Of a stretch of DNA of 64,000 nt, positions 5,163 to 63,128 are shown one piece after another. The notes under the pieces were generated by a model, which saw only the letters and a program-made list of their open reading frames with translations, had not been told where the DNA came from and made no database searches. Both the position numbers and the translations under genes were made by a program. Within the stretch, counting starts at the first letter, position 1. Every line of letters begins with the position of its first letter. The DNA lies in the NCBI GenBank assembly GCA_963762685.1, contig CAVXLV010000006.1, positions 167,308 to 231,307 of the forward strand, given 5' to 3'. The DNA is from an uncultured Verrucomicrobiae bacterium (lineage in GTDB: Bacteria > Verrucomicrobiota > Verrucomicrobiia > Chthoniobacterales > UBA10450).

Positions 5163-7081
5163 ATGCAGACCGACGCCAAGAATCATATTGATCCCCACGC
5201 AGAATGGCTCGAGCCCGATGGCTGCGGTGGCTTCGCCAGCGGCACGGTCTCCGGAATTCGCACGCGTCGCTATCACGCGCTGCTGCTGACGGCGACCGCG
5301 CCGCCCGCGGGTCGTCTCGTGTTGGTAAACGGTTTCGATGCGTGGCTTGAGACGGAGCAGGGGAGCTACGCGCTTTCGTCGCAGCGTTACGTGCCGGATG
5401 TGGTTCATCCCGATGGTGCGACGAGGATCGAGTCGTTCGAATATGAGCCGTGGCCGCGCTGGCGTTTTCGTATCGGTGAGGAACTCCTGGTCGAGCAGGA
5501 GATTTTTGTGCAGCCGGGGCAGTCGTCCGCGATCCTTTCCTGGAAGATTGTGGAGGGAAAATGTGACGCCACGTTACGCGTGCGACCATTTTTCTCTGGG
5601 CGTGATTTCCACTCGCTGCATCACGAAAACGCGGATTTTCGCTTCGAGCCCGAGACCGTCGGGCGAGCGCTGCGTCTGGCGGCCGTATGAGGGTGTGCCC
5701 TCAGTCTCGGTCTCGACGAATGGACGCTACGCGCACGAGCCCGCGTGGTATCGAGATTTTTTCTACACAGAGGAAAACGCGCGTGGATTGGATGCCGCGG
5801 AGGATTTAGCCAGCCCGGGTGTCTTTGAGTTTTCGGTCGGTCACAAACGCGCCATCCTGATCCTGGAAGCGGAGGGCGGATCACCCGGCACCGGTCATCA
5901 TGTCGAAGCGCGATACGCGGCCATGCATGCAGCCGAGTGGCGACGACGCCGCGCTTTTCCGACGCCGCTGCACCGGGCCGCCGACGCTTATTTGGTTCGT
6001 CGCGGAGCGGGGCAAACCATCATCGCCGGTTATCCCTGGTTCGGGGATTGGGGACGCGACACCTTCATTTCCATCCGCGGCCTCTGCATTGGGAGCGGCC
6101 GGTTGGCTGACGCGCGCGATATTCTCGTCCAGTGGGCCGGCGCAGTCTCAGAAGGCATGCTGCCAAATCGGTTCACCGATCATGGAGATGAACCGGAATA
6201 CAACTCCGTCGATGCGTCCCTCTGGTTCGTAGTCGCGGTAGGCGATTATCTCCGCGCGAGCCATGGCGGCGGGAAGGATGCGGCCACCTTGTGCGCCGCG
6301 ATCGAGGCGATCCTGTCCGGCTATCACGACGGAACCAGATTTGGCATCCGGGCCGATGCCGACGGGTTGCTGCGTGCGGGCGCGCCGGGCCAGCAACTCA
6401 CGTGGATGGACGCGCGCGCCGAGGGCCGGGAAGTCACGCCCCGAATTGGCAAGCCGGTGGAGATCCAGGCGTTGTGGCTGAATGCGCTCGCGATTGGTTC
6501 CAATTTTTCGGATCGCTGGCAACCAATTCTGGAACGCGGACGCCGTTCCTTCGAAGAACGATTTTGGAACGCCGACGGTGGATATTTGCACGATGTAGTC
6601 GATTGCGAACACCGCGCCGGGACCGTGGATGCGTCCTTCCGTCCGAACCAGATTTTCGCCGTGGGCGGTTTACCCCTCGTTCTCCTGCCGCCGGCAAAAG
6701 CGCGAAAAATGGTGGATGCGGTCGAAGCGCGTTTACTCACACCGATGGGCTTGCGGTCCCTCGCACCTGAGGAAGCGGGCTATGTCGGCCAATACGCGGG
6801 CGACCCTGCGCAACGCGATCGATCCTACCATCAGGGGACGGTTTGGCCCTGGCTGATCGGGCCATTCGTCGAGGCTTGGCTCAGGGTTCGCGAGCATTCC
6901 GCCGAGGCGAAAAAAGAGGCGGCCGAACGTTTCATCATGCCCATGCTGGCGCACCGGCGAACAGGCTGGGCTGGGTCACATCTCAGAGATCGCGGACGGC
7001 GATGCACCGCACAAGCCCGCCGGTTGCCCGTTCCAAGCGTGGTCGTTAGGCGAATTGCTCCGGCTGGATTCAATCTTGTAG
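5163..7081 (+). pseudogene. glycogen debranching enzyme (archaeal-type GDE / amylo-alpha-1,6-glucosidase), two +1 frameshifts
   Basis: One protein is spread over three successive frames. Frame 1 covers 5163 to about 5660 (EWLEPDGCGGFASGTVSGIRTRRYHALL). Frame 2 covers about 5655 to 6955 ([76 protein letters not shown]). Frame 3 covers about 6955 to 7081 ([37 protein letters not shown], stop TAG at 7079-7081). The span is 1919 nt, which is 3n+2. The ORF-track extension to 7119 is out-of-frame read-through into tRNA-Asn. Confidence 0.85.
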
Positions 7082-7109
7082 CCGGCCACCGAAGAGGCGC
7101 CAAACATAA

Positions 7110-7184
7110 TGGCTCCTGAGGTAGGACTCGAACCTACGACCAATCGGTTAACAGCCGACCGCTCTACCACTGAGCTACTCAGGA
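7110..7184 (-). tRNA. tRNA-Asn (anticodon GTT), CCA encoded
   Basis: The reverse complement folds as a cloverleaf: TCCTGAG-TA-GCTCAGTGGTAGAGC-G-GTCGG-CTGTTAA-CCGAT-TGGTC-GTAGG-TTCGAGT-CCTAC-CTCAGGA-G-CCA. The anticodon loop is CU-GUU-AA. Confidence 0.9.
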
Positions 7185-7219
7185 TCGTGTGACTCTCCGC
7201 AAAAGGAGAGTGCTGAAAT

Positions 7220-7296
7220 TGGTTGCGGGGGCGGGATTTGAACCCGCGGCCTTCAGGTTATGAGCCTGACGAGCTACCAGACTGCTCCACCCCGCG
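7220..7296 (-). tRNA. tRNA-Met (anticodon CAT), initiator type, CCA encoded
   Basis: The reverse complement is CGCGGGGTGGAGCAGTCTGGTAGCTCGTCAGGCTCATAACCTGAAGGCCGCGGGTTCAAATCCCGCCCCCGCAACCA. It has a C1-A72 mismatch and a GGTTCAAATCC T-arm, as in bacterial tRNA-fMet, and closely resembles E. coli tRNA-fMet from memory. Confidence 0.9.
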
Positions 7297-7309
7297 TCTT
7301 GAGATCGGT

Positions 7310-7337
7310 AGTATGACGCGCTCGCTCCCGCGCGCAA
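7310..7337 (-). promoter_or_regulatory. candidate sigma70-type promoter for the tRNA-fMet/tRNA-Asn unit
   Basis: On the reverse strand: TTGCGC, a 16-nt spacer, then CATACT, ending about 13 nt before the tRNA-fMet 5' end. The match is weak and the promoter consensus of this lineage is unknown. Confidence 0.25.
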
Positions 7338-8903: not shown

Positions 8904-9748
8904 CCGTTCGCCTGGAAGTCGCGTCGCATCAGAAATTGGCTGAGCTTTTCGCGGCTGAAGCCGAGCGGTTGGAATATTTTCACGCCAAACTCTTCAGGGA
9001 AAACAGGGACGGCGAAAAACTCACGCCCGTGAAATTGACCGATGGTCGCCGCCAGCGCATCGCGTCGCGCTGGCCAATCTGCGGTCGCGGAGAAAATGCC
9101 ATGCACACGAATGGGTCCTTCGACGAGCGGATCAGCGATGACGATGGACACTTCTCCAAGCCGGTAGGCACGGGTGCCGGGAACCTTGGCCACAGCAAAG
9201 CGGGAGATCGACCACGGCTGGTCCGGATAGAAGTCCGCCGTCGGTGTATTGAGCGCCTGGGCGATGGAAATCTGTTCCACTTTCCGACTGGCAGCACTCA
9301 TTTCGGCACTCGTTAGGCGCCAGCCGTTCAACCGGCCCTTCTCGCGGAAACCTTCCCGCCGATAGAGCGCGTGGGCGCGTGGATTTTGCTCGATCACTTC
9401 CAGCACCATCCCGAGTTCACCGCGAGCGCGGGCTTCGTCGCAGAGATGTCGCAAGAGATGACTCGCGGCCCCGGTGCCACGAGCGCTCGGTGCGAGAGCC
9501 ATGCAGGCGAGACGCGAGATGTTGCCGGTGCGATTAATGTAGCCAAAGCCGGCAAGCCCTTCCGTATTGCTTTGCACAAACCGGCTGCAATAAAGGTCCG
9601 CGCCTTGAAGCGAGAGGAAGCGCGCCAAACCAGCGGCATCCAGATCCGTCCAACCGCCGATGTAGCCCGCAAAAGCGCGGTTGGCGACGAGGGCCTGTTC
9701 GGCGAGCGGAATTTCAACCGCGGAGAGAATGCTGAACGACATCGTCAC
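8900..9748 (-). CDS. GNAT family N-acetyltransferase
   Basis: 282 aa. Acetyl-CoA binding block MALAPSARGTGAASHLLRHL, and ALYRREGFREKGRL. The stop overlaps the convergent FMN reductase gene by 4 nt. Confidence 0.7.
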   Translation of the reverse strand: MTMSFSILSAVEIPLAEQALVANRAFAGYIGGWTDLDAAGLARFLSLQGADLYCSRFVQSNTEGLAGFGYINRTGNISRLACMALAPSARGTGAASHLLRHLCDEARARGELGMVLEVIEQNPRAHALYRREGFREKGRLNGWRLTSAEMSAASRKVEQISIAQALNTPTADFYPDQPWSISRFAVAKVPGTRAYRLGEVSIVIADPLVEGPIRVHGIFSATADWPARRDALAATIGQFHGREFFAVPVFPEEFGVKIFQPLGFSREKLSQFLMRRDFQANG

Positions 9749-13659: not shown

Positions 13660-13689
13660 AGGTTTTGCATGTGAAGGCGTTAGGCCGCT

Positions 13690-18031: not shown

Positions 18032-18045
18032 AGAATTCGTGTCGG

Positions 18046-19590: not shown

Positions 19591-20922
19591 TTAGTGGCTG
19601 CCCGCGGCCGCCGGCACGCTGCCCGCCTTGATCACGGTCATCTCGTTAGGCTGGAGATGCGCTTTAATCGCGGCGTTCACTTCCGCCAGGGTCAGTGCCT
19701 GCACCCGTTTGGGATATTCATCCAGCCAGGTCACGCTGTAGCCGCGGTGGATGGCGTTGAGCAACGCGCTCGCCAGGCCGTCCGTCGTGGCCAGACCTAC
19801 TTTAAACGTCCCGATTAAGTTGGTCTTTACCCGCTCCAGCTCCTTCTCGGTGATGCCATCTTTATACCAGACGTCGAGTTGCTTTTGCGTGGACGCCATT
19901 CCTTTCTCGAGGAGATCCGGGGCGAAGTTGGCCGTGATCTGCCAGGAGCCGTCCGTGAACGAGTCGTTAGAAATGCCGGCGCCGATGCCGTAGGTCAGGC
20001 CTTCTTTGTCCCGCACATTGGCCATGAGACGGCCGGTAAAGCCCGAGCCCAAAACCGCCGTTCCCACGCGGAGCGCCAGCGCATCCTGGTCGGCGTAGCG
20101 CAGGCCGTCCGCTTGGCCCATCACCACGGTCACGTTCGGCTTCTCCGCCATCTGCACAGTTTGCGCGCGAGTCTTCGGCACGGGCTCCGCCCGGAGAAGT
20201 TCGGGCACGGCTTTGCCGCCGGTCCAGCCCTCAAAAGCCTTCGCCAGATCGCTTTTCAACGCCACCAGATCGAAGTCGCCCACCACCACGAGCGTGGATT
20301 TGGCGGGGCCGTAATAGTTGGCGTGAAACGTTTTCGCATCAGACAGGTCAGCCGCTTCGATCGCCGCCATGAACTCCTTCACGGGCGGCGAATAATTCGG
20401 ATGCCCCGGCGGATAAACCGCCTCGGCGAAGGCCTGGGTGGCGCGATAGCTCGTGCTTTCCTGCGCACGCTGCAGGTCGCCTAAAAGCTGCTTCTTCAGT
20501 TTCGCAAATTCTTCCGCCGCAAAAGCGGGCGTGCGAATTTGTTCAGCGAGCAGCGCAATGACGGTCGGGAGATCCTTTCGCAGACATTTCCCGCGGAACT
20601 CAACCATGACGCCGTCCACGGAGAAAGCGATGCGCGCGCCGATGTCATCGAGCTTTTGCGCGATCGCGAACTTATCCTGCTTTGTCGTTCCCTTATCCAG
20701 CATCTCGCCCACGAGCGTGGGGATCGCGATGTTATTCGAAGGAGCAAAACTATCGCCCGCTGGGAGCGAACCGCGGAACGTGACCACATCCTGCACATCA
20801 GTTTTGCAGGCAATGAGGTCGAAGCCGGCGATTTGTGAACGATCGACCTTGGCGGCGATTTGCGCCGAGACGCTGGCAGCCGTCGCGAGGAACAGGAGAG
20901 CGAAGAAAGAAATGGATTTCAT
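19591..20922 (-). CDS. M16 family peptidase-like protein (non-catalytic/partner subunit), secreted
   Basis: 443 aa with signal peptide MKSISFFALLFLATAASVSA. It has the two-domain insulinase fold but lacks an HxxEH motif. It sits 28 nt downstream of the catalytic M16 gene. Confidence 0.75.
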   Translation of the reverse strand: MKSISFFALLFLATAASVSAQIAAKVDRSQIAGFDLIACKTDVQDVVTFRGSLPAGDSFAPSNNIAIPTLVGEMLDKGTTKQDKFAIAQKLDDIGARIAFSVDGVMVEFRGKCLRKDLPTVIALLAEQIRTPAFAAEEFAKLKKQLLGDLQRAQESTSYRATQAFAEAVYPPGHPNYSPPVKEFMAAIEAADLSDAKTFHANYYGPAKSTLVVVGDFDLVALKSDLAKAFEGWTGGKAVPELLRAEPVPKTRAQTVQMAEKPNVTVVMGQADGLRYADQDALALRVGTAVLGSGFTGRLMANVRDKEGLTYGIGAGISNDSFTDGSWQITANFAPDLLEKGMASTQKQLDVWYKDGITEKELERVKTNLIGTFKVGLATTDGLASALLNAIHRGYSVTWLDEYPKRVQALTLAEVNAAIKAHLQPNEMTVIKAGSVPAAAGSH

Positions 20923-26406: not shown

Positions 26407-29400
26407 ATGTCCCGGCCGAGCTTTGTCTTCCTCGATCCGAGTGGTCGGCGCTGGCCGATCTTCCGCCGCCTCGCGCTGGCCGTGAGTATCATTGCCGGTG
26501 TCGGTTTGGTTCTGTTTGTGGCGGCGGTGTGGATTCGACCAGCGGTGCGGCTGCCCGCCTTCTCGCGCGAGTTACGCAGCCGCCTGAAACCAAACCGGCT
26601 GGCCCTGACGCCGGATCGGAAGGCGCAAGACTGGCAACGCTACAGCGCGCGGGCGCGGGATTTGTTGCAGCATCCCATATCAGCTCCGGCGAAGGTCGGG
26701 CCGCCGTCTCGCAAATTGCCGGTGCGGTTGGCGTTCTTTCCAAATCAAGACGCAAACGCCACTCGATCATTGCGCGAACACGCGGAGCGGCTCACCCATG
26801 TCGCGCCAGATTGGCTGACCGTTTCCGGGGTGGAAAGCGAACTCGCAGTGGAGTCTGATCCGGATTTGAGCGGCTTTCTGTCGCGAGCACGCGCTCTCCG
26901 TAATCCCGATTCTGCGCAACCTGAAAGGCGACGTTTGGCAGCCGGAAGCGGTGGAGGAATTGGCCCGCGCTCCCGTGGACCGGCAACGCGCCTGGGCGGG
27001 AACATTGGCGGAGAAACTGCATTCGTTAGGCGCAGCTGGCGTCTTGCTGGATTTCAATCAGCTCGACCCCAATTTGCAGGCGCAGTTCACCACGCTTTTT
27101 GCGCACATGAGTGAAGTGCTGCGCGCGCACGGGCTGGAATTGTGGGTGGCGGTCTCGATGGACGACGAGTTCGAGAGTTACGATCTCAACGCGCTGGCGC
27201 CGGTGGTGGATCGCTTCGTCGGTCGAATTCTTCGACGAGCACGCGGAAGGCGACGAGCCGGGCCCGATCGCCTCGCAACCCTGGGTGGAAGGCTGGCTGG
27301 AAGTGGCCGCGGATATCGGGACGCCGGAGCAATGGGTCATCGCTCTGGGCGCGCAAGCTTACGATTGGAACACGACGCGCAACCAGACGGAGGCGCTCAG
27401 TTTTCGCGACGCGATGAGCCGCGCCAGTTATGCGGGCGCGGACGTGGCCGGCGAGGTCAACGTGATGGCGCCGGATTACAACGGGCATTTCGGCTACGAA
27501 GAATCGCTCGGCCAGCACGAGGTCTGGTTTCTCGACGCGGTGACCTTGCAAAATCAAATGCGCGCAGCGGCGAAATGGGGCTTCCGCGATTTCGGCGTTT
27601 ACTTCCTCGGCGCGGAGGATCCGGCGATCTGGCAGGTGCTGGCCCGGGCCGAGACGGCGCCTAACGATGGGTTCCTTAAATCGCTGGAGCCTTTACCGGT
27701 AGACGACACCGTGACCCATGTGGGGCGCGGCGAGATCGTGAGCGCGGATTTGAGCCGGGACGCGGGTGCGCGTTCCATCCAGCGGGAGGGCGACGGGCAG
27801 CTGAGCGCGAAATATTCCAATGCGCCCAACTTCCCTGTGCTCTTTCACGATAGCGCGGCGGACGAACACAAAGTGGCGCTCACTTTTGATGACGGTCCCG
27901 ATCCGACCTGGACGCCGCGCGTGCTTGACCTGCTCAAGGAGCGCGGTGTGAAGGCGGCCTTTTTCGTCATTGGCCGCAATGCTGAGCATTACCCGAACCT
28001 GGTCAAACGTATGGTCGCGGAGGGGCACGAAATCGGGAACCACACCTACTCGCATGGCAATCTGGCGGAGATGGCGGAATGGCGTTGGCGCCTGGAGCTG
28101 GATTCGACCGAGCGGTTGATCGAGACCATCACCGGATATTCCACCGCGCTTTTCCGCCCGCCCTATAACGCGGATTCGACGCCGACAGACGTGAGCTGAA
28201 CTGGCGCCGCTCCACTTCGCCGAACATGAACTGGGTTACCTCATCGTGCTCGAAACGATCGATCCGCAGGATTGGGCGCGGCCGGGAGCGGACGCGATCG
28301 TCCAGCGCGTGAAGGAGCAGCGCAGCAAGGGGAACATCATTCTCCTGCACGATGCCGGGGGCGATCGCTCGCAGACCCTGGCTGCGCTGCCGCGGATTCT
28401 CGATTGGCTGGAGGAGCGCGGCGATCGGGTGGTTTCGCTCAGCGAGCTGCTCGGCATCCCGCGCTCCGATCTTATGCCGCGAGTGTCGGCTAACGAGCAG
28501 TTCGGCTGGCGGAGTGTGGCCACGATCGGATTTCGCAGCTGGCATTGGCTGGTGGAATTTTTCTGGTCGTTCATGATTTTCGCCACCGTGCTGGTGGTGC
28601 TGCGGACGCTGCTGATTTGCGGGTTGGCGTTGCGGCAACGACGGGCCGAAAAGCGCCGCGCGCCCGTCGCGTTGGCGCACTGGCCGGGAGTGAGCGTCCT
28701 CATTGCCGCCTACAACGAAGAGCGAGTCATCGCGCGCACGGTGCGCGCAGTTTTGGAGAGCGATTACCGCGGGGAACTCGAAGTGGTGGTAGTGGACGAT
28801 GGGTCCAGCGATCGCACCGCCGAGGAAGTAAGACGGCTCGCCGCGGGCGACGAGCGCCTGCGATTATTGCAGCAGGTCAACGCTGGCAAGCCCGCGGCAC
28901 TGCATCGCGCACTGGACGCCACCCAGCATGAGGTGGTGGTGTTTCTCGATGGCGACACGCTTCTTTGCGCCAGAGACGATTCGGAAACTTGCGGAAGAAT
29001 TGGTCGATCCCGCGGTCACCGCCGTCTCCGGGAATGCGCGCGTCGGCAATCGCGTGAACTTCGTCACGCGCTGCCAATCACTCGAGTATCTCTGCGGGTT
29101 TAACCTCGATCGGCGCGCTTACACGCAATGGAATTGCGTCACGGTGGTGCCGGGCGCGGTGAGCGCCTTTCGCCGCGCGGCGTCTGGCGGAAGCGGGCGG
29201 TTTTTCCCACGACACCCTCGCGGAGGACACGGATCTCACCCTCACGATGCATCGTCTCGGTCATCGCGTGGCCTACGCGCCGGAAGCAATCGCCTGGACG
29301 GAAGCGCCGGAAACGTGGCGCTCGTTAGGCCGGCAGCGGGTGCGCTGGGCTTTCGGCACCATGCAGTGTCTCTGGAAACACCGCGACCTCACCTTCAATC

Positions 29401-35032: not shown

Positions 35033-37072
35033 ATGAATGCTCCTTCTCTCTGGACCGCGATCCGTTTCTTTCGTGCGCTGATGATTCTATCTTTCGTGGG
35101 CGGCGCACTCATCGCCGGGGCGCAAATCGCGCCGCCGCCGCAGGCACCCGGGACGGAGCCGAGGCCGGACCAGAGCGGCAAGGCGCTGATCACGAAGGAA
35201 AGGCCGGCAGCGATCAAAGACGTGCTGGCAAAAAAGGACGATGCTCGGGCGGTGCAGCAATACACGATCGAGCAGTTCATGGACACGACGAAGATCGGCG
35301 GGGGCGCGTTTTCGCACGATGAGAAGGAGATCCTGTTCCACAGCAACAAGAGCGGAATCTTTAACGTCTACAGTGTGCCCGTGGCGGGCGGCGAACCGAA
35401 GCAGCTAACCAATTCGACGAAGGAAAGTGTGTATGTCGTGACGACGTTTCCGGCAGACGCGCGCTTTCTTTACACCTACGACAAAGGCGGGAACGAGAAT
35501 TCGCATCTTTTTCTGCGCGAGCTGGACGGGACTGAGAAAGACCTGACGCCCGGGGAAAAGACGAAGGCTAATTTTGTGAAGTGGAGTCAGGATCGGAAGG
35601 CCTTCTATTTTTCCACGAACGAGCGCGATCCGAAGTATTTCGATCTCTTCCGGATGACGGTGGCGGACCTGAAAGCGGAGCTGATTTTTAAGAACGAGGT
35701 GGGCTACGACGTCGGCGATATTTCCAATGACGGGAAGTTTATCGCGTTCGGGAAATCGGGCGATTCCACCGCCGACTCGGATGTTTATCTCTACACGGTC
35801 GAGACGAAAGATTTGCAGAAGATCACGGCGCACCAAGGCGAGGTGCAGAACGATCCCGCGACGTTCGATGTGGATTCGAAGGCTCTCTATTTTCTCTCGA
35901 ATGAGGGGGACGAGTTCACCTACGCGGCGCGCTACGATCTCAAGAGCGGGAAGCGCGACGTGGTCGAGAAGGCGAAATGGGACATCACTCGTTTCGATTT
36001 TTCGCGCACGGGAAAATATCGCATCCTCGTGACGAACGAAGACGCGCGGAGGAAGATCACGCTCACCGAAACGGCAACGGGCAAAGCGGTGGAGTTGCCC
36101 AAATTGCCCGATGGCGACGTCGCCGGAGTGAACATTTCCGAGAGCGAAGAGCGGATGCTTTTTTACCACAACGGAGCGCGCTCACCGAACAACCTCTACG
36201 CGTATGAATTTGCGTCCAAGAAGGTGGTCAAACTCTCGGATACGCTGAGCTCCGCGATCAACCCGGAGGATTTGGTGGAGTCGCGAGTGGTGCGTTATAA
36301 GTCGTTCGATGGGATGGAGATTCCGGCCATTCTTTATCAGCCCCAGGGAGCGAGCGCGGAGAAGAAGGTCCCGGCCATTGTCATGGTGCATGGCGGACCG
36401 GGCGGGCAGGCGCGCATGCCCTACAACGCGCTGGTGCAATACCTTGCGAATCATGGTTACGCCGTGCTCGATGTGAACAATCGCGGCTCGAGTGGCTACG
36501 GAAAAACCTTCTTCACCGCGGACGATCGCAAGCACGGACGCGAGCCGCTGTGGGACTGTGTGGAAGCGAAGAAGTATCTCGGTTCGTTAGGCTACGTGGC
36601 GACGGACAAAATCGGCATCATGGGCGGCTCCTACGGCGGCTATATGGTGCTGGCGGCGCTGGCGTTCAAACCGGAGGCGTTCGATGTGGGGGTGGATATT
36701 TTCGGTGTCTCGAACTGGGTGCGGACCTTGCAAAACATTCCGCCGTATTGGGAGGCGCAGCGGAAGGCGCTCTACGCGGAAATCGGGAATCCGGAGACAG
36801 AACTCGAGATGCTAAAGGAGACGTCGCCGCTCTTTCACGCGGATAAGATTACGAAGCCGCTCATCGTGCTGCAGGGGAAGAATGATCCGCGCGTGATCAA
36901 GGCGGAATCGGATGAGATCGTGGAGGCGATCAAAAAGAAGAAGGGCGTGGTGGAATACGTGGTATTCGACGATGAGGGGCACGGCTTCCGGAAGAAGGAA
37001 AACGAACTGCGCGCCTACAAAGCGATTCTCGACTTTCTGGAACAGCACCTTAGAAACGGCGCCAAAGGATAA
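35033..37072 (+). CDS. S9 family serine peptidase (prolyl oligopeptidase / dipeptidyl aminopeptidase-like), secreted
   Basis: N-terminal beta-propeller region and a C-terminal alpha/beta hydrolase domain: VMVHGGPGGQ, nucleophile GIMGGSYGGYM, and VLQGKNDPRV...DDEGHGF. The likely start is the ATG at 35033 (MNAPSLWTAIRFF..). Confidence 0.85.
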   Translation: MNAPSLWTAIRFFRALMILSFVGGALIAGAQIAPPPQAPGTEPRPDQSGKALITKERPAAIKDVLAKKDDARAVQQYTIEQFMDTTKIGGGAFSHDEKEILFHSNKSGIFNVYSVPVAGGEPKQLTNSTKESVYVVTTFPADARFLYTYDKGGNENSHLFLRELDGTEKDLTPGEKTKANFVKWSQDRKAFYFSTNERDPKYFDLFRMTVADLKAELIFKNEVGYDVGDISNDGKFIAFGKSGDSTADSDVYLYTVETKDLQKITAHQGEVQNDPATFDVDSKALYFLSNEGDEFTYAARYDLKSGKRDVVEKAKWDITRFDFSRTGKYRILVTNEDARRKITLTETATGKAVELPKLPDGDVAGVNISESEERMLFYHNGARSPNNLYAYEFASKKVVKLSDTLSSAINPEDLVESRVVRYKSFDGMEIPAILYQPQGASAEKKVPAIVMVHGGPGGQARMPYNALVQYLANHGYAVLDVNNRGSSGYGKTFFTADDRKHGREPLWDCVEAKKYLGSLGYVATDKIGIMGGSYGGYMVLAALAFKPEAFDVGVDIFGVSNWVRTLQNIPPYWEAQRKALYAEIGNPETELEMLKETSPLFHADKITKPLIVLQGKNDPRVIKAESDEIVEAIKKKKGVVEYVVFDDEGHGFRKKENELRAYKAILDFLEQHLRNGAKG

Positions 37073-37479: not shown

Positions 37480-38154
37480 CTACTTCGGGCCACCCAGCGG
37501 GGTGGTGATTTTCGTGCCGGCCGGTGGAGTGAACTGGAACAGCGCAGGATCAATCGAGGCCCGAGATTCGTTGGAGTAAATGGTCACTATTTTGTCACCA
37601 TTCGGCTGCGACATTTCGGTGCGATCGACCTGGAGGGAGCCGTTAAAATGAATCATGAAACGCTGCAGCATCCGTTTCATCGAGGGCGTGCGCGGTGTCA
37701 GTTCGAGAACATGGCCATTGGCCTCACTCGCGCCGGTAATGTGATAATTTTCTTCTACGCCTTGCAGATTGAGGCTGGCGGTGATGGCGGCAATCCCAGC
37801 CTCGAGCGGAGAGCGCTTGCCTAACGAATAGCGTTCGGCGGAATCAAACTTCGGGTAATAGAGCCAAAGCGTGGTCCCGTCGCTCACGGTCAGGCTGGGG
37901 GTGTTACCTCTGACTTCGCGGCGGAATTTATTCGGCGCCTGAAACCAAACTTTGCCAGCGCTCACGACTGGTTTGTTCATCATCTTGATCGATTTCTCTT
38001 CCTGAAAATCGGCCTGCACTTGCGGGGCGGCGGCGCGTTTCTCGCGAATGCGGGCGAGGAGGCTTTTCAGTTCGCCAGGCGCGAGCGGCGCGGCTGGGGC
38101 GAGAATCGGATTGAGAGCAAGGAGGAAGAGGGAGGTGAAGAGTAACTTAGACAT
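37480..38154 (-). CDS. LolA-like outer-membrane lipoprotein carrier family protein
   Basis: Realistic start ATG at 38154 (MSKLLFTSLFLLALNPILAPA signal). LolA-family pattern ADFQEEKSIKMM...SAGKVWFQAPNKFRREV...TVSDGTTLWLYYPKF. The start overlaps the MMPL stop by 8 nt. Confidence 0.7.
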   Translation of the reverse strand: MSKLLFTSLFLLALNPILAPAAPLAPGELKSLLARIREKRAAAPQVQADFQEEKSIKMMNKPVVSAGKVWFQAPNKFRREVRGNTPSLTVSDGTTLWLYYPKFDSAERYSLGKRSPLEAGIAAITASLNLQGVEENYHITGASEANGHVLELTPRTPSMKRMLQRFMIHFNGSLQVDRTEMSQPNGDKIVTIYSNESRASIDPALFQFTPPAGTKITTPLGGPK

Positions 38155-44636: not shown

Positions 44637-47063
44637 ATGAACGATCTTCGCTACGCCTTCCGCCAACTTCGGAAATCGCCTGCGCTCACCCTCACAGCGC
44701 TGGCCACGATCGCGATCTGTCTCGGCGCGAACCTCGCGATCTTTGCGGTCATCAATTCCATCCTGCTTCGCCCGCTGCCCTTCCCGCAATCCGACCGCCT
44801 GGTCACGATCTACAATACCTATCCGAAAGCTGGCGTGGAGAATGACGGCTCGTCAGTCACCAACTACTACGAGCGGCGCGGTCAGATCCCGGCTTTCTCC
44901 AACCTCTCCATCTTCCTCAATCGCCCCGAGCCCGTGGGCGAAATCGGTTCGACGGAGCAGGAAGAAACCATGCGCGTGTCGGCTGAGTTCTTCACAACGC
45001 TTGGCGCGGGGCCGGTCATGGGCCGGTCTTTCACGGAAGCGGACATGGCGGACGATGCCAAAGTCGTCATCCTCAGCGACGGCTTCTGGCGCCAGCGCCT
45101 CAACTCCGATCCAGACGTCCTCGGCCGCGATCTGCGCGTAAATGGCATCCTGAGGAAAATCGTTGGAGTCTTGCCTCCGGGTTTTCGATTTCTCTCTTCC
45201 GAAGCTCGCCTTTACATCGCGTATAAGACGGGCGGGGAGCAACGCGGACCCGCAGCGCGCCACTCCGGCGGTGGCGCCGTGCAGATGATCGCGCGCTTGA
45301 AGCCCGACGCGACCCTCGCCGAAGCGCAGGCGCAGATCGACGCGCACAACGCCGCGGTCGAGCAGGATAACCCCGACGCAAAAGCGATGGCGGAGGCGGG
45401 CTTTCGCTCCCCCGTCGCTTCGCTCCATGCGCATCACGTGCGCTCCATCCGGCCGACACTCTTGTTGCTGCAGGCCGGGGTGTTTTTCCTCCTGCTCATC
45501 GGCGTGGTTAATCTGATTAATCTCCTTCTGATCCGCGCGAGCGGCCGCACGAAAGAAATGGCGATCCGTCAAGCGATGGGCGCGCGCCGCCAGCATGTCG
45601 TTAGGCAAGTGCTCACGGAAACCGTTCTCCTCACCGCTACCGGCGGGTTGCTCGGCGTTGTGGCGGGCGCGTGGGGAACCCGGCTGCTCCAGATTCTCGG
45701 CGCGAATCGCTTGCCGCTCGGCGCGCTCATCGACTTTGATGGCTCGCTCGCGTTGATTGGCCTCGTGGGCGCGGTGTTTCTCGGAGTCGTGATCGCGGTG
45801 CCCATCGCCTGGTTCAATCTCGGCAGCCATCCCGCGAATGCGCTCCAAGCGGAATCGCGCACGGGCACGGTCAGTCGCGCCGCGCAGCGCCTTCGCCACG
45901 GCTTCATCGTGGCCCAGATCGCGCTCGCCTTTGTTTTGCTAACGGGTGCCGCGTTGCTCGGGCTGAGCCTCAGCAAGGTGTTGGCCGTGCCTCCCGGCTT
46001 TCGCGCCGACCATGTTCTCGCTGGCAAGTGCGCCCTCACGTGGGAACTCGGGAAGGATCGAGTCGCAGTTGTCGATCTCTTGCTGGAAGCCATCCGGCAG
46101 CAACCTGGGATCGCTGCCGCCGGAACGATCACGAACATTCCGCTGAGCGGAGAGAACGGCAAGACGGCGGTGGCGCCCAAAGGTCATGTGCCGCGGCCGG
46201 GCCAAACCCTCCAAGGTCATTACTCCTACGGGGTCAGCGGAGATTATTTCGCGGCTCTCGGCATCCCACTGCGGGAGGGCCGCTTCCTCACTTCAGAAGA
46301 CTCGCATCGGCCGGATCGTGTTTGCGTCGTGGATGAAGACTTTGCCTCGCGTTACTGGCCGAATGGCGGCGCGCTTGGCCAAAGGCTGGCGCATGGCGGC
46401 GAATCGCAGGACGCAAAACTCTTTACGATCGTAGGCGTTGTCGGATCGGTAAAACAGGCGGAGCTCACGGAAGCTGCCGGGCAAGGAGCGGTTTACCTGC
46501 CCTACGCTCACCACAGCAACGCCGCCGCCTTTTTCGTCGTCGCGCGCACCAGCCAGAATCCGGAAGCGTTCGCCGAGACGCTGCGCAAACTGGTCCGCGC
46601 CACGCAACCGGAGATCGGGATCGAGAACATCCGTTCGATGGACACCCGCATTACGGACAGCCTCATCGCGCGGCGTTCGCCGGCGCTGCTTGCGGGAATT
46701 TTCGCTGGCGTTGCTCTCCTCCTCTCCGCGATCGGAACCTACGGCGTGCTCAGCTACGCCGTCGCGCAACGAACACGCGAGATCGGTATTCGCATGGCCT
46801 TGGGAGCGCAACGCAAACAAGTCGGGACGCACGTCCTCTCGTTAGGCCTGCGCCTGCTCGCGCTTGGGACCGCGCTTGGTCTATTCGGCGCGTGGCTCGC
46901 GGGTCGAGCAATGCAAAACGTCCTCTTCGACATGCCTACGCTGCCTCTCGCCGCGCTCCTCGGCACCGCGCTGGTGCTCAGTGTGACCTCCCTCGTGGCC
47001 TGCCTCATCCCCGCGCTTCGCGCCACGCGTGTCGATCCGATGATTGCCCTGCGTGCTGATTAA
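44637..47063 (+). CDS. ADOP-family duplicated FtsX/MacB-like ABC permease, paralog 1
   Basis: Realistic start ATG at 44637 ([50 protein letters not shown]). Two MacB periplasmic-domain plus FtsX 4-TM modules. C-terminus DPMIALRAD. Intact. Confidence 0.85.
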
Positions 47064-47066
47064 ATT

Positions 47067-47159: not shown

Positions 47160-47185
47160 ACCAAGCCACCAGCCCCAAAAATTCT

Positions 47186-52225: not shown

Positions 52226-52229
52226 GCGA

Positions 52230-54898: not shown

Positions 54899-55453
54899 TT
54901 AATCCATTGCGGCGAGCGCGGGTTGGAGGCGCTTGCGCATGGTTTGAAGAGCGCGGCCGAGGATGCCGCGGAGGGCGCCGTTCGTTAGGCCGAGCGTTTG
55001 CTCGATCGTGGCGTAATCGAGCGCATCGATATAGCGGAGCGTGACGGCGATGCGGTGGGTTTCTGGCAAGGCCGCGAGGGCGCAGTGGACGCGGCTGTTC
55101 AGCTCGGCTTCATGCGCGATTTGGTCCTGGTGCGCGGAGCTTTCGTCGGCAATTTCTGCGAATTGCTCGATCAGCGGATCGGATGGGCGCCGGCGTCGGG
55201 CCAGATCGCGCGCGCGGTGGCGCGCGATGGTCGCCAGCCAGGCGGGAAATTTTTCCGGATCGCGCACGCGCCAGCGGGATTTCCAGGCTTTGACGACGGC
55301 ATCCTGGACGGCGTCTTCGGCTTCGGAGCGATCTTGCAGGACGCCGTAAGCGATGGCGAAGAGAGCGCGGCTGGAAGCACGAATGATCGTCTCGAAGGCA
55401 TCGCGGTCGCCTCGAATGGCGGCGCGGTAAATCTCGCGGTCGGTGGCGTCCAT
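54899..55453 (-). CDS. ECF-type RNA polymerase sigma-70 family factor
   Basis: 184 aa. Region 2 (AEDAVQDAVVKAWK, FPAWLATIARHRARDLAR) and region 4 (LPETHRIAVTLRYIDALDYATIEQTLGLTNGALRGIL). It lies 5 nt upstream of the anti-sigma gene. Confidence 0.85.
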   Translation of the reverse strand: MDATDREIYRAAIRGDRDAFETIIRASSRALFAIAYGVLQDRSEAEDAVQDAVVKAWKSRWRVRDPEKFPAWLATIARHRARDLARRRRPSDPLIEQFAEIADESSAHQDQIAHEAELNSRVHCALAALPETHRIAVTLRYIDALDYATIEQTLGLTNGALRGILGRALQTMRKRLQPALAAMD

Positions 55454-56776: not shown

Positions 56777-59150
56777 ATGAAAGTCTCTAGAATGCGCAGC
56801 TTTATTTCACGCTACACCCACTGGTTGCATACGCAGTGGCCCGCCGGCACGGTCGAAAAATTACCCGCGTCGGGCGAGAACGGCCTAACGAATGTGGAGG
56901 GCGTGCGCATCGTGGGCGATCTCACGGGCATTCCGCTGCTGAAGTTTTCTTCCCACACCGGGGCCGAGGCGGTGCGGGCTATTTTGCGCGAAGCGGAGTT
57001 TCGTAAAGGAGAGGGCGAGACGCTGGATCTCGCGATCATCGGCGCGGGGGTCGCGGGCATCTCGGCCGCGATCGAGGCGCGGAAAGCAGGGCTGAACTTT
57101 ATCGTGCTGGAGGCCACGGAAATTTTCTCCACGGTCGTCAACTTTCCGAAAGCAAAACCGATCTACACCTACCCGACGGAGATGAAACTGGAGGGCGGGC
57201 TGCATTTTCACGCTGAGGTGAAGGAGGCGCTTGCTGGAGGAGATGCGGGAGCAGGCGGAAGAGGCGGAAATCGAAGTGACTCCGGGACGCGTGGAGCGGA
57301 TCGAACGCAGCGGCAACGAATTAATCCTGCACCTGGCAGAGGGCGAGCCGGCGCGGGCGCGGCGCGTGATCGTGGCGATCGGGCGGAGCGGAAATTTCCG
57401 CAAGCTCGGCGTGCCAGGTGAGGAGCTCGACAAGGTTTCCAATCGTCTCTTTGACCCGAAGGAGTTCGCGGGGAAAAAGGCGCTGGTCGTGGGTGGCGGA
57501 GACTCCGCGCTGGAAACAGCGATCGCGCTCACGAAGTCGGGCGCAGACGTGACGCTTAGTTATCGGGGCGAGGAATTATCGCGCGCGAAGCCGGACAACA
57601 TCGCCAAGGTGCAGATGCTGGCGGTGAACGCGGAGGCGGATGTGCAAGTGGAACGGCCGAAGTCCGAACGCGTGAATAGCGCGATGACTTCCGGCATGCG
57701 CGGCGCGAAAGGCGGCGTTCTGAAGCTGGCCCTCGGCACGAACGTGACGCGAATCGAGCCTGAGCAAGTCTTCCTCAAAAATGGGACCGAGGAAGCGCTG
57801 CCTAACGACGTCGTTTTCACCATGCTCGGCCGTGAGGCCCCGCTGGATTTTTTCCGCCGGAGCGGATTGCATGTGCGCGGCGATTGGCGGCCGTGGACGT
57901 GGATCAGTTGTATCGCGTTCGTTCTTTTCTGCGTGGTGCTCTACCACTGGAAGAGCAATCATCCTCTGGAGTTCCCGGTGCAGAAGTGGGCCAACCAGCA
58001 GCAGGCCTTTCCCTACAATGTGCCGAAAGCGATCGACGCAGTGGGCGGCAAGATTGCGGAGTGGTCCAGTCGCGAAACGAACCTGCTCTACACCATCAAA
58101 CGCGGCCTCGGGAATCCGGCGTTTTATTACACGCTCGCCTACTGCACGTGCGTCTTCGTTTTCGGCCTCCGCCGAATTCGCCGGCGCCGCACGCCCTACG
58201 TCACGTTGCAGACGATTGTGCTCATCTGCTCGCAATGTATTCCGCTCTTCATTTTGCCGGAGTTGATTCTGCCGTGGATGGGGCGGAACGGCCTGTTCGA
58301 GCCCGGACAGCCGCTGCATTGGCTGGCTAATCAATTATTCGAAAGCTACGACGGCTCGTTAGGCCACGAGCGCGCCTACTGGCGGGCTTACGGTTTCATC
58401 CTCGCTTTCCCGCTGAACGTTTACAACGTTTTCACCGATCACCCGCTGTGGCTCTGGCTCGGGATTAGTTTCGTCCAAACCTTCGTCATTATTCCGCTCA
58501 TCATCTTTCGCTGGGGCAAAGGCGCTTACTGCGGCTGGATCTGCTCCTGCGGCGCGCTCGCGGAAACGATGGGCGATACCCAGCGCGAGAAAATGCCGCA
58601 CGGGCCATTCTGGAATCGGCTCAATATGGTCGGGCAAGCCGCGCTCGTTTTCGCATTCGCGATTCTCGGATTGCGCATCGCCGGCTGGGCGCTGGGCGAG
58701 GATTCGTGGGCCACGCTTTGGTATCACAAGCTCTTCGAAGGCATCCCGTTTCTGAATTACGCCTGGAGCGTCGATATCTTCATGGGCGGCATCCTCGGCG
58801 TGGGACTTTACTTTTGGTTTAGCGGTCGCGTTTGGTGCCGCTTCGCCTGTCCGCTGGCCGCTCTCATGCACGTCTACACGCGCTTTTCGCGTTACCGCAT
58901 CTTCCCAGAGAAATCGAAATGCATCTCGTGCAACGTTTGCACCTCCGTCTGTCACCAAGGCATCGACGTCATGAGCTTTGCCAACAAAGGACTTCCGATG
59001 GAGGACCCGGAGTGCGTGCGTTGCTCCGCCTGCGTGCAACAATGCCCGACCGGCGTGCTCGCGTTCGGTCGCTACGATGGCCAACAGCAGATCGTGCTGG
59101 ATAAGATTCCCGCTTCGCCCGTGCGGATGCGGGAAGGGAGGCAGGGTTAA
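56777..59150 (+). pseudogene. membrane-bound NAD(P)/FAD-binding oxidoreductase fused to a polytopic 4Fe-4S ferredoxin domain (NapH/MauN-like), one +1 frameshift
   Basis: N-terminal piece: DLAIIGAGVAGISAAIEARKAG (FAD dinucleotide fold). Second fold: KALVVGGGDSALETAIAL. Then TM helices with Cys clusters GWICSCGALAE, CRFACPLAALMH, CISCNVCTSVCHQG and CVRCSACVQQCPTG. The join is near 57228-57231. The span is 2374 nt, which is 3n+1. Confidence 0.7.
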
Positions 59151-59725: not shown

Positions 59726-60436
59726 ATGCCTGGGAAAAAGCCAGAGGTCGTCCGCACGCAAAACTTCGTCCGCGATGCGGCGCAGTTCATTTTGCAACAG
59801 GCGCACACTGCCCTCGGCGAGCGCGGTGAATTTCGGATCGCGCTTTCCGGCGGCCGCACGCCGCGGCCGGTTTATGAGGAGCTCGCGCGCAGCGGGCGCG
59901 ATCTACCTTGGGAGCAGATTCAAATCAGCTTCGGCGACGAACGTTGCGTGCCGCCCGATCACGTGGAGAGCAACTACCGAATGGCGCGGGAAGCGCTCTT
60001 TGTTCCGGCGTCGATTCCAGCCGGATCCATTCTCCGGATGCGGGGGGAAGCGGAGCCGACTTTGGCGGCGCAGGAATACGAAGACCAACTCAGCCTGCTG
60101 GCCACGCAAAAAGGAGAAGTCACTTACCGGCACGATTTGATTTTGCTCGGCCTCGGCGACGATGGCCACACGGCCTCGCTGTTTCCCGGCACGTCCGCGC
60201 TGGATGAAAAATTGCGGAAGGTGGTTGCTAATTTCGTCCCGAAGTTGAACGCCTGGCGTTTGACTTTTACCCTGCCGCTGATCGCGGCGGCGCGGCACGT
60301 TTGCTTTCTCGTGGATGGGACGAAACATCCGGAATTGATCGAGAAAGTGCTGCAATCCGATCTCCAGTATCCCGCGGCGCGCGCGCAAGAGGGGGCGAGC
60401 GCTGTGACCTGGATCATCGGCCAGCCCACTTCATGA
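59726..60436 (+). CDS. pgl: 6-phosphogluconolactonase
   Basis: Start ATG at 59726 (MPGKKPEVV). Motifs: [44 protein letters not shown]. Confidence 0.85.
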
Positions 60437-61506
60437 AAAAGAAAACGATCATCGTCACCGGTTCTGCTGGCCTGATTGGGTCCGAGACCGTGAAACGGTT
60501 CGCCCGCGACGGCTACCATATCGTCGGCATCGATAACGACATGCGGAGCCGTTTTTTCGGCGCGGAAGCTTCGACCCGCGGAACGCGCGATCAGCTGGTG
60601 CAGACCATCGGCGAATACGAGCACCACGATATCGACATTCGGGACGCGAAGGCGGTGCGCGATGTCTTCCAGCAGCACCGCGCCAACATCGTGGCGACGG
60701 TGCACACGGCGGCGCAGCCTTCGCACGATTGGGCGGCGCGCGATCCGCAAATGGATTTCACCGTGAATGCGAACGGAACGCTGAACATGCTCGAAGCTGC
60801 GCGTGAATTTTGCCTGGAGGCGCCGTTCGTTTTTACGTCTACGAACAAGGTCTACGGCGACACGCCAAATCGTCTGCCGCTGCGCGAACTGGATTTGCGC
60901 TGGGAGATCGCGGAGGGCCACGAATATGAGCCCGGCATTTCCGAGACCATGAGCATCGATCACACGAAGCATTCGCTCTTCGGCGCGTCGAAGGCGGCGG
61001 CCGATATTCTGGTCCAGGAGTATGGGCGTTATTTTGGAATGCCGACCGCGTGTTTCCGCGGCGGATGTCTTACCGGACCAGCGCACGCGGGCACGGAGCT
61101 GCACGGATTTTTATCCTACCTCATGAAATGCACGGTGACCGGTCGGCCGTATCGCGTCTTTGGTTACAACGGCAAACAGGTGCGCGATAACATTCACAGC
61201 TTCGATCTCGTGGAAGCGTTCGCCGCCTTTATCGACGCGCCGCGCGCCGGCGAGGTTTACAATCTGGGCGGCAGCCGACACAGCAATTGCTCGATGTTGG
61301 AAGCGATCAATCTCTGTGAAGAAATCAGCGGCAAGCGTCTAACTTGGAAATACGAAGAGGATAATCGCATCGGCGATCACATCTGGTGGATCAGCGATGT
61401 GCGCCGGTTTCAGGAGCATTATCCGGCGTGGAAATTCCGTTATGGTCTGCGCGAGATCATGGAGGAAATCCATGCGGCCGTGGTCGCGACGGAAGCGATC
61501 GCCTAA
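60433..61506 (+). CDS. SDR-family NAD-dependent sugar epimerase/dehydratase
   Basis: Start ATG at 60433 (ATGA overlap with the pgl stop). Motifs: [26 protein letters not shown], and YxxxK in FGASKAAAD. 357 aa. Confidence 0.85.
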
Positions 61507-61533
61507 CGATCGAGTCCCCACTTGCTCGAACCG

Positions 61534-62001
61534 CTAGTATTCTTCGCCTTCGTCCACCCCGCCGGACGGAATCCGATCCTGCACCACGTAGACGTGGACC
61601 ATCACGCACAGCCAATAGACCGGCAAAATCATCACGCCGAAACCGGCTGTTCCGGTGGCCAGCAAGAGCGCACCTCCGAGCGCCGCGGGTGTGCCCAAAA
61701 ACATGAGTAATAAGCCCACCACGCGGTGCCCTTTGTAGATATGACCGAGGCCCGGCAGAAGGCTCAGCAAAACCGCAACGACGTCGCTCGCCTTCCCTTC
61801 CACTTCGAACTCATGGCTCTCGCGGATCCAGTCACAATTGCTGCAACTCTTGGCATCGGCTGGCAAAGTGTGTCCACAAAGCGGGCACGCCATCGTCCCG
61901 TCTGCGAGGCTGGGAGTTTCCGCTGAAGGTGCGTCGGTATATTCCAAAATAATTTCCTCGGTCGATTGGTGAGAGCTGCTGCGTCTTCGCCAAAGTCCCA
62001 A
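61534..62001 (-). CDS. zinc-ribbon + TM membrane protein (hypothetical)
   Basis: CPLCGHTLPADAKSCSNCDW zinc ribbon, followed by 2-3 TM helices with an LLPGLGHIYKGH motif. The start is uncertain: 62001, or the internal M at 61893. Confidence 0.5.
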   Translation of the reverse strand: MGLWRRRSSSHQSTEEIILEYTDAPSAETPSLADGTMACPLCGHTLPADAKSCSNCDWIRESHEFEVEGKASDVVAVLLSLLPGLGHIYKGHRVVGLLLMFLGTPAALGGALLLATGTAGFGVMILPVYWLCVMVHVYVVQDRIPSGGVDEGEEY

Positions 62002-62082
62002 GCCGGAAAGAATCCGTCAAGAAAAGTCAGCAGCGGATTTGTCTCCGGATTCCGCATGGTGCGAATCCCGCGCGATGCGGAT

Positions 62083-62264
62083 CGAGTTAATGTGTGCGTA
62101 GCCGCGGCACCCCTCTTATCCCACCGAAGTAGAGGAGCGGCTGCAGAAGCGATTGGCCTCAAAGTGGAGAAGGCCGGGTTTCAATTTGAAGGACGTCTCC
62201 GCAAAAACGTGGTGGAGGCGATGGTGAGATTTTGGATTCGCTGGTTTGCTCCGTGGTTCGATGA
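62083..62264 (+). pseudogene. possible C-terminal remnant of a RimJ/RimL-type GNAT acetyltransferase
   Basis: In otherwise non-coding DNA, one frame reads RVNVCVAA....IGLKVEKAGFQFEGRLRKNVV. After a 1-nt shift at about 62209-62213 it reads GGGDGEILDSLVCSVVR, then a stop (62262-62264). This resembles the GNAT C-terminal pattern (xKxGFxxEGxLRxxxxxxGxxxDxxxYSxxR). No N-terminal part is detectable. Confidence 0.3.
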
Positions 62265-62372
62265 ATTGATGACGCGCTCCGTCGGCGCAGTACCGCACAA
62301 TTTGGTTGTGGAAAGCGGGATTCTTCACATGATCGACGACCGACGCCGCGCTTCGGAACATCCTGCCTCACA

Positions 62373-63128
62373 ATGTCTTCACTCAACGGGATCGTTCACC
62401 ATCTCGACGAATATCTGCGCGTCGCAGAATGCGCTGATTGGTCGCAAGCGTTGAACGGGTTGCAGGTCGAGAACTCCGGAAAAGTGAGCAAGATCGGCGC
62501 GGCGGTGGATGCCTCCACCCGCACCTTCCAGCTCGCGGCGGATGCGGGGGTCGATCTGCTTTTGGTGCATCACGGTCTTTTCTGGCCGGGACTGCAAGCG
62601 GTCACCGGCCCGTTTCGCCGCCAAGTCGCCTTTCTTTTCGAGCATGATATCGCGCTCTACAGCGCGCATCTGCCGCTCGATATCCATCCGTTGCTGGGGA
62701 ATAACGCGCAGCTTGTTTCCGCTCTCGGACTGGAAGGCGCGGAACCATTTCTCGAAACCAAAGGGCAGCTCGTGGGCCTGAAAGTTCAAACCAAAATAGA
62801 ACGCGCTGAATTGTTGCAACGGTTTGAGCGTTCGTTAGGCGGTCCGGTTCAGACTTTCAATCACGGCCCCGCCGAGGCTCAGACTATCGGGGTGGTGACG
62901 GGCGGCGCCGGCTCCGAGATTTACGCCGCCGCCAAGGCGGGCGTGGACACGCTTCTCACCGGTGAAGCACCACACTGGGCGGCGGTGGCGGCGGAGGAAC
63001 TCGGCGTCAATCTCTTGTTAGGCGGCCACTACGCCACGGAGACTTTCGGAGTGAAAGCGCTCGCGGCGTATGCCGGCAATCGCTTCGGCCTGCCATGGGA
63101 ATTTCTCTCCGCGCCCACAGGTTTGTGA
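62373..63128 (+). CDS. Nif3-like dinuclear metal center protein (YbgI/GTP cyclohydrolase 1 type 2 homolog)
   Basis: 251 aa: NGLQVENSGKVSKIGAAVDAS, DLLLVHHGLFW, SAHLPLD, and a GGHYATE C-terminal block. Confidence 0.85.
   Translation: MSSLNGIVHHLDEYLRVAECADWSQALNGLQVENSGKVSKIGAAVDASTRTFQLAADAGVDLLLVHHGLFWPGLQAVTGPFRRQVAFLFEHDIALYSAHLPLDIHPLLGNNAQLVSALGLEGAEPFLETKGQLVGLKVQTKIERAELLQRFERSLGGPVQTFNHGPAEAQTIGVVTGGAGSEIYAAAKAGVDTLLTGEAPHWAAVAAEELGVNLLLGGHYATETFGVKALAAYAGNRFGLPWEFLSAPTGL

Follow-up and report, generated by a model that had tools for sequence, protein, structure and literature searches.

What makes one asymmetric 9-mer, TCGTTAGGC, recur throughout a 64 kb stretch of DNA from an uncultured Verrucomicrobiae bacterium (the window, by which we mean the whole stretch that was analysed)? 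A first-pass annotation of the window had reported 17 exact copies of this word, and an exact search recovered every one of them at the same coordinates and on the same strands, 11 on + and 6 on -, which amounts to 0.27 copies per kb. Our results extend this single-window view: TCGTTAGGC, with its core CGTTAGGC and the strict centre GTTAG, is a clade-wide word of Chthoniobacterales with dialects that differ by lineage, and a second phylum shares it.

The over-representation claimed for the word is borne out by each informative expectation. In 100 dinucleotide-preserving shuffles of the window, whose GC content is 0.61 (62% had been assumed), TCGTTAGGC appears 0.22 times on average and at most twice, none of the shuffles reaching 17. 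An order-3 Markov model predicts 0.21 copies, that is, an observed/expected ratio (O/E) of about 80, and ranks TCGTTAGGC first among the over-represented 9-mers of the window. Synonymous-codon shuffling within genes, which preserves the proteins as well as the codon pool of each gene, the rare codons of the motif included, yields a mean of 0.64 and a maximum of 4 copies in 500 rounds. A maximal-order Markov model returns an expectation of 17.35; in 64 kb this value carries no information, since the motif itself dominates the counts of its sub-words. The enrichment weakens beyond nine bases, with 21 occurrences of TCGTTAGG and 28 of TCGTTAG in the window, and the hexamer control of the first-pass annotation (25 TTAGGC, 19 CGTTAGGC, 17 TCGTTAGGC) was reproduced exactly. 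The window also holds 17 one-mismatch copies; all eleven that had been listed are present, and six had been overlooked (7264, 13950, 16562, 41223, 48174 and 51836). As had been noted, none of the bases flanking the window copies is conserved outside the nine nucleotides, and TCGTTAGGC is therefore not a dispersed repeat family. The copies follow Poisson-like spacing; some gaps are long without obviously being islands, and there is none of the evenness seen in the highly iterated palindrome HIP1 of cyanobacteria or in the uptake signal sequence (USS) of Pasteurellaceae. The word ends in TTAGGC, which is also the unit of the nematode telomere repeat; since the bacterial loci contain no telomere-like tandem arrays, we regard the match as a coincidence.

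The word extends well beyond this genome. An LptF/G alignment, run against a single genome for each GTDB species, gave 80 related loci (1.13 Mb; 72-96% protein identity to the window), nearly all of them labelled Chthoniobacterales, Candidatus Udaeobacter or Verrucomicrobia, which together carry 229 copies of TCGTTAGGC where a handful would be expected. Density peaks in L011, with 30 copies in 21 kb (1.42 per kb); other rich loci are L042 (19 copies), L047 (16), L049 (15), L035 (14), L022 (13), L019 (12) and L046 (12), and the pooled poor loci are still at an O/E of about 19. Rich lineages are scattered over the LptG tree, and close relatives differ several-fold in density. In L011, L035 and the pooled loci L008/L014/L015 the word takes a 5'-extended form, ACTCGTTAGGC, in which the added A and C are present in 47-60% and 56-67%, respectively. 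In one coherent sister clade of the Chthoniobacterales/Udaeobacter type (L016, L051, L045, L050, L023, L057, L038, L025, L053, L028, L039, L072, L080 and others), TCGTTAGGC is largely replaced by a different asymmetric word, TGTCGATCTT, in the form [A/T]TGTCGATCTT(G). This second word contains GATC and TCGA and numbers 165 copies in 285 kb (O/E 87; 96 on + and 69 on -), which lie in five frames (K-I-D, D-R, V-D-L, S-I-L and others) and, for 16% of them, in intergenic DNA; L015 and L016 hold both words. Two G/T-rich words were seen in single loci, GTTGGGCG in L004 (12 copies) and GTGTTGGTG in L078 (9-11 copies), with skewed orientations of 3:11 and 3:12, and could be polar words of these two genomes, resembling the FtsK-orienting polar sequences (KOPS). 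As word families, they and TGTAGCC[AC] were rejected, since no clear family emerged once the loci were pooled.

The specificity of the signal is graded. When the window is pooled with 12 rich loci (304 kb), the perfect word reaches an O/E of 141 and all one-mismatch words combined 2.8. A mismatch within positions 3-7 (GTTAG) removes the enrichment, and four edge variants stay enriched, namely C1 (22-fold), T2 (33-fold), T8 (14-fold) and G9 (30-fold). Such a combination of strict core and tolerant edges resembles the footprint of a protein that binds a specific sequence.

The way in which genes accommodate the word sets it apart from a protein motif. The first-pass annotation had it read as S-L-G in about nine genes of the window; the reading is genuine, although it applies to six copies. 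The remaining readings occur as described, four copies being read as x-P-N-D/E, three as x-L-T, three as x-V-R and one as the TAA stop codon of an NAD-epimerase gene, with nine copies sense and eight antisense to their genes, as stated earlier. Within genes of the window, no copy lies in either of the two frames in which its TAG or TAA would be read as a codon. Across 17 sequences (the window and 16 word-rich loci, with crude gene calls based on GC content at third codon positions, GC3), all four stop-free frames are used, by 49, 28, 25 and 42 copies, and sense and antisense copies number 77 and 67. About 73% of the copies lie within open reading frames (ORFs), and 26.5% fall in the 12.5% of sequence outside called genes, the intergenic density being about twice the coding density. 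Codon choice yields to the word as well. TTA is indeed rare, accounting for 63 of the 1958 Leu codons of the window (3%), and S-L-G is nonetheless spelled TCG-TTA-GGC, that is, as TCGTTAGGC, in 5/14 cases in the window, 11/11 in L011 and 24/46 in eight other loci; P-N-D/E is spelled CCTAACGA in 5/5, 2/3 and 33/37 cases (40/45 in total). TCGTTAGGC acts at the DNA level and not at the protein level, overriding codon choice; in this regard frames, codon usage and flanks agree with the earlier claim of a DNA-level signal that is neither a protein motif nor a dispersed repeat.

Conservation among relatives points in the same direction. An all-against-all alignment of the loci provided 1989 ungapped pairs of a site and an orthologous locus, in which the orthologous 9-mer is identical for 26.4% of motif sites and 6.9% of same-phase control 9-mers, a qualitative contrast of about 4-fold. 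One-mismatch orthologues, on the other hand, are fewer at motif sites (7.4% versus 21.5% of controls), as are those with two mismatches (11.5% versus 29.5%), and the commonest orthologues other than the motif are common synonymous spellings such as TCGCTCGGC. The site at 37819 illustrates the pattern: its orthologue is perfect in 10 of the 36 aligned loci, which belong to distant clades, but reads AAGCTCGGC or GCGCTCGGC in the close relatives L003 and L004, a pattern that means the word was repeatedly either gained or lost at a single permissive site.

The core of the word reappears in a second phylum. Several metagenome matches have a GC content of 65-70%, and on one of these GC-rich contigs, L131, an AlaX-like protein shares 99% identity with an entry labelled Gemmatimonadaceae bacterium, with two more homologues of the same label at 79% and 70% identity. 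Five orthologous loci (L220-L224; 87 kb, GC 0.66-0.71) were obtained through the AlaX-like protein, independently of the motif. Each holds 9-15 copies of CGTTAGGC per 12-21 kb against 0.1-0.4 expected (about 50-fold; Poisson P from 1e-14 to 1e-23) and 2-4 copies of the full TCGTTAGGC. The Gemmatimonadaceae form is the 8-mer core CGTTAGGC, present at about 0.7 per kb with 36 and 43 copies on the two strands; in its logo, C occupies position -1 in 76% and position -2 is nearly free. The simplest idea to account for one core in two phyla is horizontal transfer of its recogniser. Among other GC-rich metagenome contigs, L087, L168 and L193 carry 4-6 copies of CGTTAGGC each, and an exact protein match places L187 in Chthoniobacterales. 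Tandem arrays with an 18-nt period, one TCGTTAGGC per unit and differing 9-nt spacers were found in L111 (5401-5463), L120 (8829-8873) and L138 (839-919); these GC-rich contigs came up because a 36-nt distance between copies is what the search pattern selects, and the arrays may be chance tandem repeats.

The orientation of the copies bears on what kind of machinery could read them. When the window and the LptG loci are oriented alike, 146 copies lie on the LptG-sense strand and 100 on the other (59:41, P = 0.004), the pooled copies sharing ancestry and synteny; TGTCGATCTT has a similar LptG-sense bias of about 58% (96:69) in these loci. The bias may be a property of the locus, owing to sites inherited in common or to a weak strand effect specific to the locus, and orientation correlates neither with local GC skew nor with a GC3-based replication component, both of them noisy proxies in 20 kb loci. 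An independent test relied on metagenome contigs with a seed pair, defined as two same-strand copies 27-57 nt apart. About half of the matches were chance occurrences or tandem repeats, and filtering by GC content and flank identity left 58 loci (269 kb). These contain 102 further copies (0.38 per kb), 46 in the same and 56 in the opposite orientation to the seed pair, that is, a concordance of 45%. Chi of E. coli occurs about once per 4.5 kb with a single-digit O/E, and co-orientation with replication is at least about 75% for Chi and above 85% for KOPS. Under a Chi-like skew of 75%, which predicts a concordance of about 70%, the probability of 46 or fewer same-strand copies is 1.5e-7, and it is 2.6e-4 for P(same) = 0.625. 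The strong strand polarity that is the hallmark of Chi and KOPS is absent.

Any explanation has to accommodate the extreme enrichment, DNA-level nature, distribution with dialects, excess conservation, graded specificity and lack of strong polarity established above. As their cause we infer uptake, a receptor, competence and drive: TCGTTAGGC may be a DNA-uptake-enhancing or self-recognition word spread by molecular drive, a reading to which we give a chance somewhat short of even. The word would arise and persist at the level of DNA, in spite of codon usage and constraints on the protein, because a sequence-specific DNA-binding machinery favours DNA bearing it. A surface receptor of the transformation machinery would prefer fragments with the word, word-less alleles would be replaced through homologous recombination, and drive would let the word accumulate where proteins tolerate it, as in S-L-G, V-R, L-T and P-N-D/E contexts, and in intergenic DNA. 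Shifts in receptor specificity could then give rise to the dialects, namely the 5' A-C extension, the 8-mer of Gemmatimonadaceae and the unrelated TGTCGATCTT of one clade.

The models for such a system are the DNA uptake sequence (DUS) of Neisseriaceae, recognised by the receptor ComP, and the USS, whose 9-10 nt words number in the hundreds to thousands in each genome; ComN is a further, predicted receptor for words of this class. The density of TCGTTAGGC and its O/E of 80-141 match those of DUS/USS or HIP1, the per-genome total being extrapolated, and only DUS/USS and HIP1 reach such enrichment for a short word across genes and spacers. The first-pass annotation had proposed uptake sequences, Chi and KOPS as candidate classes; the idea of a short asymmetric recognition word holds, and among the three, uptake is favoured, while orientation, density and O/E speak against Chi and KOPS. 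The uptake class is preferred because the asymmetry, the strict core with tolerant edges, the dialects with a 5' extension of the core and the replacement in a sister clade fit DUS/USS, as do the intergenic excess, the avoidance of stop frames and the lack of polarity. DUS and USS likewise are short asymmetric words (9-12 nt, about 0.3-1.4 copies per kb) that occur on both strands and in every stop-free coding frame, override codon usage and are absent from viral contigs. There are differences too, since the sequence of TCGTTAGGC is unrelated to theirs, its hosts are Verrucomicrobiota and Gemmatimonadota and not Proteobacteria, one dialect (TGTCGATCTT) is a wholly different word and not a variant by 1-4 nt, and the core is common to two phyla. 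According to a 2025 survey, Neisseriaceae and Pasteurellaceae are the only groups in which uptake-enhancing sequences are known.

Several observations weigh against the uptake reading. About half of the known DNA uptake-enhancing sequences (DUES) sit in terminators as inverted-repeat pairs, but neither close inverted pairs nor terminator placement of TCGTTAGGC was found, there being just two +/- pairs, spaced by 91 and 97 nt, among 158 copies in 10 sequences. Judged by sequence statistics, the word behaves like a DUES; membership is not claimed, one reason being the missing terminator pairs, which together with the cross-phylum sharing do not fit DUS/USS. Simple drive within species does not lead one to expect the same core in two phyla; such sharing requires transfer of the recognising protein. 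No competence, type IV pilus or recombination gene lies within the 64 kb window among ORFs supported by Pfam/NCBIfam, and literature searches returned no report of natural transformation in these uncultured lineages. In addition, a weak polarity of 59:41 is compatible with the 46:56 result (P = 0.07 for P(same) = 0.53), the orthologous pairs are phylogenetically non-independent, which makes the contrast between motif and control sites qualitative only, and the frame and intergenic statistics depend on the crude gene calls.

Other explanations share part of the evidence. The word could be recognised, in the manner of HIP1 (GCGATCGC), by a DNA methyltransferase, possibly a mobile one, and/or by a sequence-specific repair enzyme, its frequency being inflated by biased repair or by a methylation-dependent function. 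HIP1 is likewise a hyper-abundant 8-mer of genes and spacers with a broad taxonomic range and with conservation at orthologous sites beyond expectation, and TCGTTAGGC resembles it in abundance, use of all frames and excess conservation; horizontal transfer of a mobile enzyme would explain the cross-phylum core, density differs greatly among close relatives, and the alternative word TGTCGATCTT includes GATC and TCGA. We nevertheless consider this origin unlikely. HIP1 is a quasi-periodic palindrome methylated by known enzymes, whereas TCGTTAGGC is asymmetric and Poisson-spaced; a fully specified asymmetric target of 8-11 nt would be unusual for a methyltransferase, and repair biases such as very-short-patch (VSP) repair give small enrichments, not 80-140 times. 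Moreover, HIP1, whose function had long been unknown, enhances transformation according to a 2026 preprint and is proposed there as an uptake sequence, so that this explanation partly merges with the uptake reading. A further step down in probability, and in our opinion decidedly improbable, is a binding site for an abundant chromosome-organising or self/non-self protein, be it nucleoid-associated or part of a defence that spares word-bearing DNA, selected genome-wide. Such a site would agree with the graded core-plus-edge specificity, the Poisson-like spacing on both strands and the lack of motif-rich viral contigs: a scan of IMG/VR with the seed-pair pattern gave 19 matches, all of them chance occurrences or tandem repeats on contigs that carry no additional dispersed copies. 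However, the known sites matS, SBS, NBS and parS number in the tens and do not approach one per kb, per-site selection that overrides codon usage at thousands of sites is hard to envisage, and the swap of a sister clade to an unrelated word is easier under drive.

A signal for a polar translocase, that is, Chi (read by RecBCD/AddAB) or KOPS and its SpoIIIE counterpart SRS (read by FtsK/SpoIIIE), would also be a short asymmetric, over-represented and lineage-specific word of 8-9 nt, and the 11:6 split of the window toward the G-rich strand and the 146:100 split of the pooled LptG loci lean that way. The seed-pair test, the lack of any relation between orientation and local GC or GC3 skew, a density of up to 1.4 per kb and an enrichment 10-50 times stronger than that of Chi or KOPS (O/E 80-140) make it very unlikely. 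As to trivial causes, namely chance, codon or peptide bias, a dispersed repeat or miniature inverted-repeat transposable element (MITE) family, or an assembly artefact, nothing except the small size of the window speaks for them, and their probability is negligible. Shuffles and codon shuffles expect 0.2-0.6 copies, the word uses four frames and both strands, and it recurs in dozens of independent metagenome-assembled genomes (MAGs) and metagenomes from different studies; unlike repetitive extragenic palindromes (REP) or MITEs, it lacks extended or flank conservation and lies largely inside ORFs. Chance, codon bias, repeats and artefacts are thus ruled out by shuffles, flanks, frames and independent genomes.

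Full-text literature searches for TCGTTAGGC, its complement and its core returned only primers and unrelated sequences, and no paper connecting uptake sequences with Verrucomicrobia was found; in line with the first-pass annotation, the word is apparently undescribed so far.

The individual sites of the window are listed in the table below, where readings refer to ORFs backed by Pfam/NCBIfam.

Table. Copies of the word in the 64 kb window, with their gene context and, where applicable, the state of orthologous sites.
Feature	Position	Strand	Gene context	Reading	Remark
Exact TCGTTAGGC	7043..7051	+	sense, glycogen-debranching-like gene	V-V-R-R	
Exact TCGTTAGGC	9310..9318	+	antisense, GNAT gene	R-L-T-S	
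Exact TCGTTAGGC	19643..19651	+	antisense, M16 peptidase gene	Q-P-N-E	
Exact TCGTTAGGC	27023..27031	+	unannotated ORF 26281-27114	F-V-R-R	
Exact TCGTTAGGC	27659..27667	-	antisense, polysaccharide deacetylase gene	A-P-N-D	
Exact TCGTTAGGC	29322..29330	+	sense	S-L-G-R	TTA Leu
Exact TCGTTAGGC	33354..33362	-	antisense, ORF 32338-33492	P-P-N-E	
Exact TCGTTAGGC	36584..36592	+	sense, S9 peptidase gene	S-L-G-Y	orthologous site perfect in L003, L004, L071
Exact TCGTTAGGC	37819..37827	-	sense, LolA-like gene	S-L-G-K	
Exact TCGTTAGGC	45598..45606	+	sense, ADOP permease gene	V-V-R-Q	conserved in L001
Exact TCGTTAGGC	46839..46847	+	sense, ADOP permease gene	S-L-G-L	conserved in L004, L007
Exact TCGTTAGGC	54982..54990	+	antisense, ECF sigma factor gene	G-L-T-N	
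Exact TCGTTAGGC	56883..56891	-	antisense, FAD oxidoreductase ORF	G-L-T-N	
Exact TCGTTAGGC	57800..57808	-	antisense, FAD/4Fe-4S oxidoreductase gene	L-P-N-D	
Exact TCGTTAGGC	58356..58364	+	sense, FAD/4Fe-4S oxidoreductase gene	S-L-G-H	same gene as the 57800 copy
Exact TCGTTAGGC	61501..61509	-	NAD-epimerase gene (60301-61506)		TAA is the stop codon of the gene
Exact TCGTTAGGC	62832..62840	+	sense, NIF3/DUF34 gene	S-L-G-G	
One-mismatch copy TCGTTAGGG	2847..2855	+	directly upstream of FNT start codon		G at position 9, a tolerated variant

The genes around these sites call for a few comments. The FNT gene proposed earlier next to the one-mismatch copy at 2847 is present (2857-3678), but the hemL label given to the surroundings of 13677 does not stand: the region holds a GT2 glycosyltransferase gene of 863 aa on the minus strand (11068-13659), with 13677 near its 5' part, and the + strand ORF 12916-13674 has no Pfam match. 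Several genes seem to be broken into neighbouring or overlapping ORFs (20950-22442, 28246-30914, 49733-52491, 56777-59150 and 16143-18127); they encode an M16 peptidase, a GT2 glycosyltransferase, the third ADOP permease, an FAD/4Fe-4S oxidoreductase and an ABC-F ATPase, and frameshifts, pseudogenes or errors in MAG assembly could account for the breaks. Three tandem genes of the ADOP family ('acidobacterial duplicated orphan permease') lie at 44517-51478 of this Verrucomicrobial genome, and a PadR-linked ADOP/MacB-FtsX permease is present in the Gemmatimonadaceae loci too. The three ADOP genes had pointed to Acidobacteria as the source, an assignment that was rejected: the LptF/G and Kup proteins of the window are 100% identical to proteins encoded on a 279 kb NCBI/ENA contig, the closest relatives with a name are MAGs called 'Chthoniobacterales bacterium', and the 80 LptF/G loci agree with this placement.

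The broadest form of the uptake reading, that CGTTAGGC is the transformation uptake word of two unrelated soil phyla (Chthoniobacterales of the Verrucomicrobiota and Gemmatimonadaceae of the Gemmatimonadota) and that a sister clade has switched to TGTCGATCTT, seems to us rather less likely than the uptake role as such. If true, it would imply a horizontally transferred receptor, sequence-selective uptake would be widespread in soil and not peculiar to two proteobacterial families, and the shared word might open a channel for gene exchange between phyla, both of which are globally abundant, dominant in soil and largely uncultured. Even if the word does not serve uptake, a force that acts across phyla and alters the choice of codons and the make-up of peptides roughly once per kb needs explaining. 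If it does, TCGTTAGGC would be a genomic marker of natural transformation in uncultured bacteria; the receptor could be identified by relating gene content to word density in the hundreds of MAGs already available, and the word may offer a handle for binning, for the detection of foreign DNA and perhaps for the genetic manipulation of these lineages.

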